Source: Eledone cirrhosa
Lineage: Eukaryota
NCBI GenBank assembly: GCA_964016885.1
Contig: OZ024757.1
Span: 8,804,001-8,868,000 of the forward strand
DNA length: 64,000 nucleotides
Reading direction: 5' to 3'
The notes under the pieces are model-generated. The model did no database searches, had not been told where the DNA came from, and saw only the letters and a program-made list of their open reading frames with translations. Shown one piece after another: positions 200 through 64,000 of the stretch. Each line of letters begins with the position of its first letter. Positions within the stretch are counted from its first letter, which is position 1. The translations under genes were made by a program, and so were the position numbers.

Positions 200-219
200 T
201 TATTTAAATGCTTTTTGAC
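200..219 (-). CDS. Putative terminal coding exon of minus-strand micro-exon gene (phase 1, ...GQKAFK*)
   Basis: Minus strand ttttttatgttgagatAG|gt caa aaa gca ttt aaa TAA, with AATAAA overlapping the stop. In frame with exon 337-399 across a 117-nt intron. Confidence 0.5.
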
Positions 220-336
220 CTATCTCAACATAAAAAAACACAGGTATATATAACATATAAATGAATATGAAAGAATGACATAATACATTAAAATATACAA
301 TATATTTTATAAAAGTGAGTTTAAATTACAACTTAC

Positions 337-399
337 CTTCCATAGTTGTAAGCGCAAATATGGGAGAATCATAGACAAAGGAATCTGCGGAAGAATTGG
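337..399 (-). CDS. 63-nt phase-1 exon (S)NSSADSFVYDSPIFALTTME
   Basis: Acceptor tttttttcttattttAG and donor AG|GTAAGT. 63 nt with no stop. Flanks are homologous to the other exons. Confidence 0.75.
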
Positions 400-567
400 C
401 TAAAATAAGAAAAAAATAAAAATTAAATGAAGATATACGATTGAACAATAGGCACATAAGTATACATTCAAAACCCCACACAAATATAAATACATATATT
501 TATATGTAGAACACAGGGAGGTTATAGACGCAGTAGTAGAGCACTCGGTCCATGGACGAGTTCCTTT

Positions 568-58200: not shown

Positions 58201-61200
58201 ATCTCGATTTGACATTAATGTTGAAACACGTGTCATAGTTCTCTGTACAGACTAATAGAAAGTGTGTTTGAAATAAAACTTACGTTCGTTGGAGACAGTG
58301 TCTATTGTTATGCCTGGCTGAGAGACAAGGTTCTCTACAGGTGAAATAACTGGAAGAAATATGGAAGAAAATAATAGGAATGCAAGAAGCTTTTCTTGGG
58401 AAGAGTTTGTAATCAATTTGAAGAAATGGTAGAATAAGACGTTGTATTTTGAATTACCTAGACCCATTTAGTTATATATGGGCTGTCTGGAATTATGAGA
58501 CAAATATGGTAGTTTCGATATGTGCATAAAGAACAAATATATATGATGGGATAACCAAATATGTAGAGCAATAGCTGATCTAGTCATACGATGATAAGGA
58601 GTATGAAAAACGAAGGAAGACCTGAAATAGTGAAGAAGTGTCGGAGGAAATTTTGTTAAAGATGAGAACTCTGATCTGTGAGATTATTCCATCTACCTCA
58701 AAGTATCTTGTGCAACATTCATCTTCTCTTTTTAACCAGAAATGTCATTCTTTCATAGATAACTCTGATAATAGCCTGAAAAAGTGTATCTTTACTTTTG
58801 ACCTCATTGTAATGTCTCTAAGGATCAAGGTCAATAAAATGTTTATCCTTGATTATGTTAGGGAGATTGTAATATATTATTCTTGACTGAAATAAGTAGT
58901 TATACATTTACTGATCAAAACATAAATAAGTTTCTGAATAATTAATAGATAATTTTAAATTAATAACTTACTCTTTTCGGCAAGTTTGGTCTTGAGTGTT
59001 GCACTTCGAGAAGACAAATATGAAGCGTCAGCTAGAAAACATAAACAAAATAATAGTAAAACTGTATGTATATATATACAAATTTATATTACAAATACAG
59101 AAAACAGTTATTAGATTCATTATCTCTGATGTACTGATAAATACACCAGGTCCGAACACAAAAAGAAACAAGTTACCATGTCCTTACCAAATATATATAT
59201 ATACATATATATATATATATATATATATATATATATATATATATATATATATATATATATATATATATATATATATATATATATATAGGAACACGGCGTC
59301 TTAGCTTCCTCGTAAATACACATTTACTACTGAATTTTCTCTAATCTTGATAACAGTCGTTATAACTAAAATGTATTCTTACATACACACGCATACCGTG
59401 TGTGTACACAGAATCTCACAGTCACACACGCACACACATGGTTCACACACTCAAAAAGCCACCAAACCAACGGAGAAACACACACAAACTGTTACTCGTT
59501 AATGTTATATACAACCCAATATACATATATGTACAGATCAACATACGCAAAACACTAGCATGACTTCACTTATATATATATATACACACTATTTTATTCA
59601 TCAGTTCCAGCATACACAATATGTAGACTTTCATGTTTACAAATATATGATGTAATCTCGATTTGACATTAATGTTGAAACACGTGTCATAGTTCTCTGT
59701 ACAGACTAATAGAAAGTGTGTTTGAAATAAAACTTACGTTCGTTGGAGACAGTGTCTATTGTTATGCCTGGCTGAGAGACAAGGTTCTCTACAGGTGAAA
59801 TAACTGGAAGAAATATGGAAGAAAATAATAGGAATGCAAGAAGCTTTTCTTGGGAAGAGTTTGTTATCAATTTGAAGAAATGGTAGAATAAGACGTTGTA
59901 TTTTGAATTACCTAGACCCATTTAGTTATATATGGGCTGTCTGGAATTATGAGACAAATATGGTAGTTTCGATATGTGCATAAAGAACAAATATATATGA
60001 TGGGATAACCAAATATGTAGAGCAATAGCTGATCTAGTCATACGAGGATAAGGAGTATGAACAACGAAGGAAGACCTGAAATAGTGAAGAAGTGTCGGAG
60101 GAAATTTGGTTAAAGATGAGAACTCTGATCTGTGAGATTATTCCATCTACCTCAAAGTATCTTGTGCAACATTCATCTTCTCTTTTTAACCAGAAATGTC
60201 ATTCTTTCATAGATAACTCTGATAATAGCCTGAAAAAGTGTATCTTTACTTTTGACCTCATTGTAATGTCTCTAAGGATCAAGGTCAATAAAATGTTTAT
60301 CCTTGATTATGTTAGGGAGATTGTAATATAATATTCTTGACTGAAATAAGTAGTTATACATTTACTGATCAAAACATAAATAAGTTTCTGAATAATTAAT
60401 AGATAATTTTAAATTAATAACTTACTCTTTTCGGCAAGTTTGGTCTTGAGTGTTGCACTTCGAGAAGACAAATATGAAGCGTCAGCTAGAAAACATAAAC
60501 AAAATAATAGTAAAACTCTATGTATATATATACAAATTTATATTACAAATACAGAAAACAGTTATTTGATTCATTATCTCTGATATACTGATAAATACAC
60601 CAGGTCCGAACACAAAAAGAAACAAGTTACCATGTCCTTACCAAATATATATATATACATTTTTATATACATATATATATATATATATATATATATATAT
60701 ATATATATATATATATATATACATATATATAGGAACACGGCTTCTTAGCTTCTTCGTAAATATACATTTACTACTGAATTTTCTCTAATCTTGATAACAG
60801 TCGTTATAACTAAAATGTATTCTGACATACACACGCATACCGTGTGTGTACACAGAATCTCACAGTCACACACGCACACACATGGTTCACACACTCAAAA
60901 AGCCACCAAACCAACGGAGAAACACACACAAACTGTTACTCGTTAATGTTATATACAACCCAATATACATATATGTACAGATCAACATACGCAAAACACT
61001 AGCATGACTTCACTTATATATATATATACACACTATTTTATTCATCAGTTCCAGCATACACAATATGTAGACTTTCATGTTTACAAATATATGATGTAAT
61101 CTCGATTTGACATTAATGTTGAAACACGTGTCATAGTTCTCTGTACAGACTAATAGAAAGTGTGTTTGAAATAAAACTTACGTTCGTTGGAGACAGTGTC

Positions 61201-62050
61201 TATTGTTATGCCTGGCTGAGAGACAAGGTTCTCTACAGGTGAAATAACTGGAAGAAATATGGAAGAAAATAATAGGAATGCAAGAAGCTTTTCTTGGGAA
61301 GAGTTTGTTATCAATTTGAAGAAATGTTAGAATAAGACGTTGTATTTTGAATTACCTAGACCCATTTAGTTATATATGGGCTGTCTGGAATTATGAGACA
61401 AATATGGTAGTTTCGATATGTGCATAAAGAACAAATATATATGATGGGATAACCAAATATGTAGAGCAATAGCTGATCTAGTCATACGAGGATAAGGAGT
61501 ATGAACAACGAAGGAAGACCTGAAATAGTGAAGAAGTGTCGGAGGAAATTTGGTTAAAGATGAGAACTCTGATCTGTGAGATTATTCCATCTACCTCAAA
61601 GTATCTTGTGCAACATTCATCTTCTCTTTTTAACCAGAAATGTCATTTTTTCATAGATAACTCTGATAATAGCCTGAAAAAGTGTATCTTTACTTTTGAC
61701 CTCATTGTAATGTCTCTAAGGATCAAGGTCAATAAAATGTTTATCCTTGATTATGTTAGGGAGATTGTAATATAATATTCTTGACTGAAATAAGTAGTTA
61801 TACATTTACTGATCAAAACATAAATAAGTTTCTGAATAATTAATAGATAATTTTAAATTAATAACTTACTCTTTTCGGCAAGTTTGGTCTTGAGTGTTGC
61901 ACTTCGAGAAGACAAATATGAAGCGTCAGCTAGAAAACATAACAAAATAATAGTAAAACTGTATGTATATATATACAAATTTATATTACAAATACAGAAA
62001 ACAGTTATTAGATTCATTATCTCTGATATACTGATAAATACACCAGGTCC
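49300..62050. repeat. Four-unit higher-order repeat, period 5794 bp
   Basis: Homologous positions 49948/55742/61536, 51374/57168, 52844/58638 and 54298/60092 share diagnostic variants. Confidence 0.92.
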
Positions 62051-62499
62051 GAACACAAAAAGAAACAAGTTACCATGTCCTTACCAAATATATATATATA
62101 CATATATATATATATATATATATATATATATATATATATATATATATATATATATATATATATATATATATATAGGAACACGGCGTCTTAGCTTCCTCGT
62201 AAATATACATTTACTACTGAATTTTCTCTAATCTTGATAACAGTCGTTATAACTAAAATGTATTCTTACATACACACGCATACCGTGTGTGTACACAGAA
62301 TCTCACAGTCACACACGCACACACATGGTTCACACACTCAAAAAGCCACCAAACCAACGGAGAAACACACACACACTGTTACTCGTTAATGTTATATACA
62401 ACCCAATATACATATATGTACAGATCAACATACGCAAAACACTAGCATGACTTCACTTATATATATATACACACTATTTTAATTCATCAGTTCCAGCAT

Positions 62500-64000
62500 A
62501 CACAATATGTAGACTTTCATGTTTACAAATATATAATGTAATCTCGATTTGACATTAATGTTGAAACACGTGTCATAGTTCTCTGTACAGACTAATAGAA
62601 ATTGTGTTTGAAATAAATCTTACCTTTTTTGGAGACAGCGTCTCTTTTTATGACTGGCTCAGAGATAATGTCCTCTACAGGACTCACAACTGGAAAAGAA
62701 TACGGAAGAAAATAATAGGAAAGCTAGAAGGGTTTCTTGGGAAGAGTTTGTTGTCAATTTGAAGAAAACGTAGAATAAGGTGTTAGTATTTTAAATTAGC
62801 TAGAACAATTTAGTTATATATGGGCTGTCTGGTATTATGAGACAAATATTGTAGTTTCCCATTGGGCCTAAAGAACAAAAAGAACCAAGTTACCATGTCC
62901 TTGCCATATATATATATATATATATATATATATATATATATATATATATATATATATATATATATACATACATATTCAAGTATTTTTATAAATGCACGAT
63001 TCAGGACCACGGCGTCTTATCTCCGTAAATATACATTTACTACCAAATTTTCTCTAATCATGATAACAGTCGTTACAACTAAAATTTATTCTTACATACA
63101 CACGCATACAGTGTGTGTACACATAATCTCACCGTCACACACGCACACACATAGCTCACACACTCAAAAAGCCACCAAACCAACGGACAAACACACGCAA
63201 ACTGTTACTCGTTAATGTTATATACAACCCAATATACATATGTGTATACATCAACATACGCAAAACACTAGCATGACTTCACTTATATATATATACACAC
63301 TATTTTATTCATCAGTTCCAGCATACACAATATATAGACTTCCATGTTTACAAATATATAATGTATTCTCGATTTGACATTAATGTTGAAACACGTGTCA
63401 TAGTTTTCTGTACAGACTAATAGAAAGTTTGTTTGAAATACAATTTTCATTCTTTGGAGACAGCATTAGTAGGTATGCTTGGCTCAGAGACAAATTTCTC
63501 TACAGGGGAAATAACTGGAATAAAATACGGAAGAAAATATTAGGAAAGCTACAAGGTTTTCTTGGCAAGAGATTGTTGTCAATTTGAGGAAATGGTAGAA
63601 TAATGTGTCGTATTTTAAATTAGCTATAACTCTTTAGTTATATGTGGGGCGTCTGGAATCGTAATACAGATATTACGGGTTCCCACTGGTCCTAAAGAAC
63701 AAATATATATGATGGTATAACCAAATATTTAGAGCAATGCCGATCTACTGGATACGTGTATGAGGAGTATGAACAACGAAGGGGGACCAGAAATAGTGAA
63801 GAAGTGTGGGAGGTAATTTTGTTAAATATGAGAACACCGATGTGTCTGATAATTCCATCTACCTCAATGTATCTAGTGCAACATTCACCTTTTCTTTTGA
63901 ACCAGATATAATGTCATTCTTTCTTAGATAACTCTGAAAATGCGCTGAAAAGTTGTATCTTTACTTTTGACTACATTGTAAGATCTCTGATGATGGAAGT
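62500..64000 (-). repeat. Return to the older cassette block (copy of ~14.7-16.2 kb)
   Basis: Same order of diverged exon B, donor-less exon B (63449-63514) and diverged spacer as at 14826-16230. Confidence 0.9.
62624..62689 (-). CDS. Diverged exon B variant VSPVEDIISEPVIKRDAVSKK
   Basis: ttttccAG | 66 nt | AG-GTAAGA; paralogue of 14826. Confidence 0.6.

Follow-up and report, generated by a model that had tools for sequence, protein, structure and literature searches.

A 64,000-nt stretch of the 3.0-Gb Eledone cirrhosa genome (GenBank assembly GCA_964016885.1, contig OZ024757.1, positions 8,804,001 to 8,868,000; C18 in the coordinates below), referred to here as the window, carries a tandem array of short exons that has the appearance of a satellite. 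With a probability of about 0.7, we interpret this array as the repetitive central coding part of a genuine octopod gene that is lineage-restricted and multi-copy and whose product would be an orphan, disordered protein of variable length. The gene model comprises an ATG exon, dozens of phase-1 exons of 60 or 66 nt, and three unique exons related to one another; a last exon common to the family carries a poly(A) signal.

A BLAST search with one A copy (60 nt) and one B copy (66 nt) as queries returned 34 A and 39 B exon copies on the minus strand at 6312..63514, which matches exactly the 34 A and about 39 B exons of one minus-strand gene reported in a preliminary description of the stretch. 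A 40th B row, in which 31 nt match the acceptor of U2 (at 1008), was left out of the B count. All 34 A exons were intact, with AG/GTAAGT borders and an open phase 1-1 frame. Among the B exons, 31/39 were intact and 8/39 had a dead donor, with GA in place of GT in six (63514 and the five dead copies of the older part in Table 1) and a deleted donor in two (29349 and 28061). The sole in-frame stop among the A and B copies of the window lies in the B at 12212, the donor of which is already dead, so that the earlier statement on intact copies being stop-free holds. The three unique 63-nt exons U1–U3 (3458-3396, 1008-946, and 399-337) were likewise open in the array frame, as had been claimed. A generic exon rule (pyrimidine-AG, 60–66 nt, GTAAG, open frame) produced 67 matches on the minus strand of the window and none on the plus strand, as well as none on either strand across 110 kb of neighboring DNA, which served as a chance control.

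The 42-aa repeat encoded by an A-B pair, for which about 25 repetitions had been described, indeed forms a long run, but the unbroken part consists of 22 A-B pairs, followed by A, A, A-B. Exact copies prevail, with 25/34 A and 22/39 B being letter-identical. Dead cassettes are interspersed among live ones, which indicates that single cassettes can be dropped. The introns of the window gene measure 286–3044 nt. The exons had been labeled micro-exons, and they are small, but 60–66 nt lies above the cut-offs of approximately 27–51 nt for that class. Several pairs among the flanks of A, B, and U1–U3 show relatedness, at z values of up to 6 relative to base shuffles, with other pairs near 0, which suggests that a single ancestral exon unit lies behind all five. 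The features are listed in Table 1.

Table 1. Coordinates of the gene features; plain positions refer to the window, those with C18 or marked as contig to the whole contig
Feature	Location	Strand	Remarks
First coding exon	C18:8874233-8874458, 6.2 kb past base 64000	-	226 nt: ATG, 75 codons, and phase-1 GTAAG donor
Three more intact cassettes past the high end	contig 8870102 (B), 8869140 (B), 8868207 (A)	-	starts given
Old 5′ array edge	62624..63514	-	B at 63514 dead through its GA donor; B at 62689-62624 diverged but intact
Young homogenized array	26752..61929	-	A: 25 identical; B: 22 identical, one differing by a single substitution, two lacking the donor through deletion
Young unit, ~1.45 kb	26752..61929	-	A 60 nt, 622-nt intron, B 66 nt, ~630–740-nt intron with (AT)n tract
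Exact block duplication	50300..61887	.	4 units, 5,794 bp, 0 mismatches, AT-tract lengths also equal
Older diverged 3′ array part	6312..26070	-	A: 9 intact; B: 7 intact, 5 dead (25388, 19838, 15742, 12212 with stop, 8125)
96-bp minisatellite, 19 copies	4346..6174	.	intronic, common to family members
Exon U1, 63 nt, phase 1-1	3396..3458	-	flanks related to A and B flanks
Exon U2, 63 nt	946..1008	-	GC donor; GT in paralogue C28:28.86 Mb
Exon U3, 63 nt	337..399	-	varies more than its flanks among near-identical paralogues
Stop exon of the preliminary description	200..220	-	AG-containing tract; possible weak alternative acceptor, probably intron
Probable last exon	starts C18:8803458, 543 bases before window base 1	-	strong phase-1 acceptor

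Both ends of the gene lie outside the window. The adjacent higher-coordinate DNA, in which a search for the 5′ end had been advised, contained the ATG exon and three further intact cassettes. An in-frame stop lies five codons upstream of the ATG. The product of the first exon has two basic helices flanking Cys-Pro-Cys, followed by coil, and the AF2 model placed the helices at residues 3–25 and 28–44 (pLDDT 75, pTM 0.40, 7-sequence alignment). At the other end, the stop exon proposed near 220 is probably wrong, and the sequence comparison favors a last exon 543 bases before the window, which has a stronger acceptor tract than the one near 220 and an AATAAA 206 nt downstream. This region returned 20 match rows in the genome. 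In the older regions, a stop (TAA or TAG) stands two codons past the acceptor in 9/9 aligned copies, whereas in young genes that codon is TAC and the frame runs for 21 codons (3/3 aligned). The young group has apparently turned the family stop codon into TAC and acquired an 11-nt duplication, adding 19 C-terminal residues. The stop-exon motif near 220 was absent from 7/7 old-group regions, which also lack U3; in young genes, the exon near 220 is possible as an alternative end. A folded domain further downstream was rejected, since the shared last exon ends within 2–21 codons. A further exon candidate at 1953 had no donor and was dropped.

Full inclusion of the live cassettes would yield a protein of 1,585 aa, encoded over 71 kb and open from ATG to stop across 71 internal exons, with 16.1% Ser, 9.5% Thr, 6.3% Pro, and 33 SP/TP sites. 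No membrane span was seen by hydropathy in this full-inclusion protein, in which the highest 19-residue value was 0.76. No signal peptide was seen at the basic N-terminus, where hydropathy windows likewise reached 0.76 at most and no dedicated predictor was run.

The gene is one of a family, with 17 genomic copies of its first exon, seven at 99–100% identity, three at 93%, and seven at 81–82%. They are distributed over C18, C28, and a single small scaffold, possibly a duplicate haplotype. The family sample comprised 17 segments, 8/17 genes being whole and nine segments partial. The genes span approximately 51 to 224 kb from start to end, and each of those examined carries its own array. In the seven whole genes with an open first exon, we counted 71, 43, 71, 79, 78, 111, and 22 intact internal exons, corresponding in the same order to full-inclusion lengths of 1,585, 191, 1,581, 1,751, 1,733, 2,293, and 495 aa, while the eighth whole gene, whose first exon is frameshifted, had four intact internal exons. 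Since the exons are symmetric, both gain and loss are frame-safe, and the range from 22 to 111 bears out the earlier proposal that copies can be gained or lost without a frameshift.

Each lineage amplified its own unit, and the gene at C28:43.4 Mb amplified a three-exon AAB unit instead of A-B. The A-B intron differs by 0.65–1.3% within a gene and by 0.7–1.6% among young genes, but by 14% between the young group and the gene at C28:0.09-0.22 Mb. As these sequences show, the arrays are homogenized within each gene lineage. The exact 5,794-bp duplication in the window represents either a very recent unequal crossover or an assembly artifact.

Selection on the frame and the splice sites supports our interpretation. 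Among 598 cassette-type copies in the 17 segments, 539 were intact, 54 splice-dead or partial, four stopped, and one frameshifted, with three of the four stopped copies being the last internal exon. The length was divisible by three in 161/162 distinct live exons, compared with 28/149 indels in the intron flanks. In a stop test based on a minimum-spanning tree and a simulation of our own, which took the variants of standard length with intact sites (56/62 distinct A and 42/55 distinct B), stops numbered one against 7.8 expected in A (P = 0.0015) and zero against 6.0 expected in B (P = 0.0005). The other frames were stopped in 16–56 of the 56 A variants and in 32–42 of the 42 B variants. AG and GT were kept in all 62 distinct A variants of the first set of regions, nearly every live donor has the consensus GTAAGT, and the acceptors hardly vary. 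The pN/pS ratio was 1.05 for A and 1.2 for B. The depletion of stops together with a ratio of about 1 indicates that selection keeps the frame and the splice sites, not the residues. In the first exon, pN was lower than pS (0.023 vs. 0.150 against paralogue L030; 0.124 vs. 0.219 against L033), and an in-frame 6-nt indel occurs among its copies. Judging from these comparisons, the head encoded by the first exon is constrained, while the residues of the repeat drift.

It is doubtful, with the odds well against it, that the family was once coding and that the window copy is now a silent satellite or pseudogene whose exon signals were kept by recent amplification. The near-identity of the young units, the exact duplication of a 5.8-kb block, the broken state of some family members, and the failure to find a protein homologue all speak for silence. 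Against it, the window copy is open from ATG to stop over all 71 internal exons, 3/4 of the other fetched young genes are open likewise (1,581–1,751 aa), and arrays that were amplified independently and lie 14% apart have kept both exons and the frame.

We consider a functional gene the better account, and propose that most live cassettes are included by default, which would give a Ser/Thr/Pro-rich, probably disordered intracellular protein of approximately 1,000–2,300 aa. The conserved basic helix-Cys-Pro-Cys-helix head might anchor the protein. Its target would be either the membrane, by way of a polybasic patch and acylated Cys, or nucleic acid or the nucleus, while the tail would be a spacer or a phosphorylatable scaffold in which length matters more than sequence. 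Unequal crossing-over between the 1.45-kb units would change this length, and whole genes would have spread by segmental duplication.

A different account of a real gene is that each transcript takes a variable subset of cassettes, with exons being skipped or repeated, so that a ladder of product lengths would arise in each cell or individual, perhaps for gamete or immune recognition. All exons are phase 1-1, the interior stop cassette of the gene at C18:9.33-9.38 Mb needs skipping for a long product, 27 distinct A variants occur in C28:0.09-0.22 Mb, and SmPoMuc transcripts are described as differing in repeat number (PMC2576457). We nevertheless hold subset splicing to be unlikely, because donors are nearly uniform and acceptors near-invariant, the rarity of interior stops fits inclusion in most transcripts, and repeats of a protein with neither signal peptide nor membrane span are unlikely to face outside.

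The exons also vary more than the introns, which would suit such diversification. In the cassette columns, 52/126 exon sites vs. 172/622 intron sites were variable, in a set whose units were chosen by intron similarity and are thus biased towards an exon excess; another comparison of cassettes gave 24/126 vs. 160/1298. The first exon had 31/220 variable sites vs. 79/1259 in its flanks (P = 2e-4), but the excess against the 93% group was not significant (12/226 vs. 53/1462). For U3 the values were 6/63 vs. 27/1896 in the flanks (P = 5e-4), and for U2 0/63. Among near-identical paralogues, the six variable sites in the 63 nt of U3 stand beside flanks that differ by less than 1%, and the U3 of C28:0.09 Mb and C1507 carries a stop near the natural end.

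Synonymous and nonsynonymous changes were counted at 14:42, close to the neutral ratio, which speaks against diversifying use of the cassettes. On the minimum-spanning tree of the stop test, which was built on exon distances, A exons did not exceed introns (0.071 vs. 0.096 per site), and B exons did so slightly (0.092 vs. 0.080). The first-exon excess includes synonymous sites, 7/31 of its changes fall at CpG, and it persists at G/C sites (exon 22/114 vs. flanks 35/458), so that CpG decay and GC content, which were considered as causes, do not fully account for it. Positive selection was not shown. By analogy, intron-biased gene conversion would fit, as has been argued in the account of SmPoMuc for these and for spider silk genes (PMC2576457). 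The boldest version, in which an octopod-specific family of about 17 genes, with up to ~110 symmetric exons spliced combinatorially and diversified faster than the introns, supplies variable tails for cell or gamete recognition and is unrelated to Dscam or protocadherins, strikes us as rather improbable.

Dscam-like sequence diversification had also been raised in the preliminary description. Its strict form, mutually exclusive splicing with one A and/or one B per transcript, draws on the observation that tandemly duplicated exons of like length are often mutually exclusive (PMC6071210). In the window, the prevalence of identical A and B copies leaves little diversity to choose from, A and B alternate, the introns of at least 286 nt are too long for steric exclusion, and no antisense (docking) matches were found by BLAST. 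The best duplex of intron 1 had an energy of −27.5 kcal/mol vs. −27.4 to −31.0 for eight shuffles, and that of the 3′ intron −33.2 kcal/mol vs. −27.8 to −32.1 for the shuffles, the pairing being a low-complexity TG/TA repeat. A duplex scan of these two flanking introns, in which short weak pairings could be missed, thus found no docking/selector pairing clearly above the shuffles. We regard this mode of splicing as highly improbable, and the Dscam-like part of the earlier proposal as poorly supported, given the uniformity of the copies and the lack of such pairing.

Inclusion of most cassettes in a functional gene remains our preferred interpretation, and several points weigh against it. The array exons and the gene are known here from genomic sequence. 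No RNA run was listed as containing positions 200-3500 of the window, a result that has no bearing on expression. Three sequencing runs whose type is not recorded, all of a single sample, cover introns as they do exons and behave as DNA, and none of the predicted splice joints was found among the matches listed in these runs. Of the 17 first exons, 15 are open and two are broken, one by a stop and the other by a frameshift. The gene at C18:9.33-9.38 Mb, one of five young genes fetched, has a stop in an interior, splice-intact A, which limits the product to 191 aa unless this cassette is skipped, in which case it would reach 1,003 aa. The 3′ end of the gene at C28:45.25 Mb is decaying, with dead, frameshifted, and stopped cassettes. 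The young array of the window is by itself too uniform to show selection, and the tree-and-simulation design is a limit of the stop test. The protein is probably disordered, as judged from composition. The anchoring role of the head is a proposal, and a germline role, suggested by the ampliconic and fast-changing nature of the family, is a guess to which we give somewhat less than even odds. Finally, the excess of variation in the exons is not explained by a passive spacer.

The arrangement of the family in the genome showed further features. In the old group, two genes are arranged head to head at a distance of 37 kb (C28:45209781 on the minus strand and C28:45247031 on the plus strand), and the C18 copies occur in both orientations, which suggests inverted segmental duplications. 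At C28:44234206, a copy of the last exon and an intact cassette have no partner among the 17 first exons and may mark an 18th family member. Ten of the 17 first-exon copies are on C28, including the entire oldest group. C28 measures 136 Mb and follows C27 at 22 Mb, out of size order, and a chromosome placed in this way is often the sex chromosome of an assembly. As a guess, C28 may be the Z chromosome. The exon of SPAG9/JIP4, of which SPAG9 is given as a Z marker (PMC10925132), falls on the unplaced scaffold C1420; it has 97% identity to proteins of Octopus vulgaris, O. bimaculoides, and Argonauta hians, and 84% to a bivalve protein.

The 96-bp minisatellite precedes U1 in the intron of matched family members and extends over ~8 kb in one of them (C28:4654096-4662328), and relatives with 68–78% identity occur on other chromosomes (C13, C3, C17, C24). 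Its consensus is open in one frame per strand, but the copies break the frame. A coding exon was rejected for this reason, all Pfam matches being below the cut-off. The ~110 kb directly upstream of the gene (C18:8878001-8988000) is dense in open reading frames (ORFs) resembling non-LTR (long terminal repeat) retrotransposons, a class judged by eye, and a plus-strand ORF with a C2H2 zinc-finger array lies ~19 kb before the window beside a long low-complexity repeat tract.

In our judgment, the family is a real orphan one and apparently undescribed, with an architecture of a known kind at large scale. No protein homologue was found with the first exon or its 7-sequence alignment as query among proteins of 133–2000 aa, none among 1.84 billion representatives, and no usable Atlas match. 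All queries were the first exon or other short pieces taken singly and did not include the spliced repeat, so that repeat-only relatives may exist. A PEHE match in Pfam (E = 0.054) was below threshold and was rejected. Nothing matching the family was found in searches of the cephalopod literature, although subscription papers and supplements might hold an annotation. Repeat masking would probably remove this cephalopod gene family from view. It offers a clear example of selection acting on frame and splice sites while residues turn over neutrally. Because the pattern recurs in paralogues that amplified different units, the growth of exon arrays, and whether length is the only selected trait, can be put to the test.

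The architecture is already known from SmPoMuc, NBPF, and LPA, which limits the surprise. Primate ANKRD36/ANKRD30 may be a similar case, as a multi-copy family with satellite-like arrays of small exon pairs that encode a simple repeat, although they have N-terminal ankyrin repeats. Dscam1 alternatives are sequence-diverse Ig segments. Dscam1 shares with the octopod gene the large arrays of duplicated exons of like length, but one exon per cluster is chosen there by docking/selector pairing (PMC6071210), whereas the octopod copies are mostly identical and the pairing was not found. The micro-exon genes (MEGs) of schistosomes similarly have runs of short exons and disordered products, but these are secreted with a signal peptide and reach 189 aa at most, and near-identical genomic tandem units are not described in the available passages of that account (PMC10526429). 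The octopod gene has neither the signal peptide nor the short secreted product of the MEG type.

Closer parallels are found in three systems. SmPoMuc of Schistosoma mansoni is described as a species-restricted multigene family with a small exon in a ~1-kb genomic tandem unit containing a microsatellite, concerted evolution, cluster-specific exon variants, introns more homogenized than exons, and unique small exons downstream (PMC2576457). Its units hold a single 27-nt exon and number ~20 at most, and the protein, which has a 22-aa signal peptide, is secreted and glycosylated (PMC2576457), while each octopod unit holds two exons, intact internal exons number up to 111 per gene, and there is no signal peptide, with no sequence similarity shown. 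The shared traits, an exon in a homogenized ~1-kb tandem unit and a Ser/Thr/Pro-rich repeat, concern architecture and not homology. The NBPF genes with Olduvai (DUF1220) repeats are likewise a lineage-specific family spread by duplication, with exon-doublet repeats, older variants flanking a block of recent expansion, and higher-order blocks, but the doublets of ~52 nt and >140 nt stand in 4.7-kb triplets and encode a recognized domain (PMC9313022). Neither Olduvai nor any other Pfam family scored above the cut-off in the first exon, one B exon, or U1, which are short pieces; the spliced repeat was not scanned. In the variable number tandem repeat (VNTR) LPA KIV-2, each unit likewise holds two exons, near-identical units number up to 40 with diverged ones at the flanks, and copy number determines the length of the protein (PMC11201333). 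It resides in a single gene with a 5.6-kb unit and encodes a folded, secreted kringle (PMC11201333), whereas the octopod unit is 1.45 kb and its repeat looks unfolded and free in sequence. As in NBPF and LPA, exon-doublet tandem units occur with copy-number differences (22–111 intact internal exons in seven genes). Shown to belong to none of these systems, the octopod family would, by analogy, work like SmPoMuc, NBPF/Olduvai, and LPA KIV-2.

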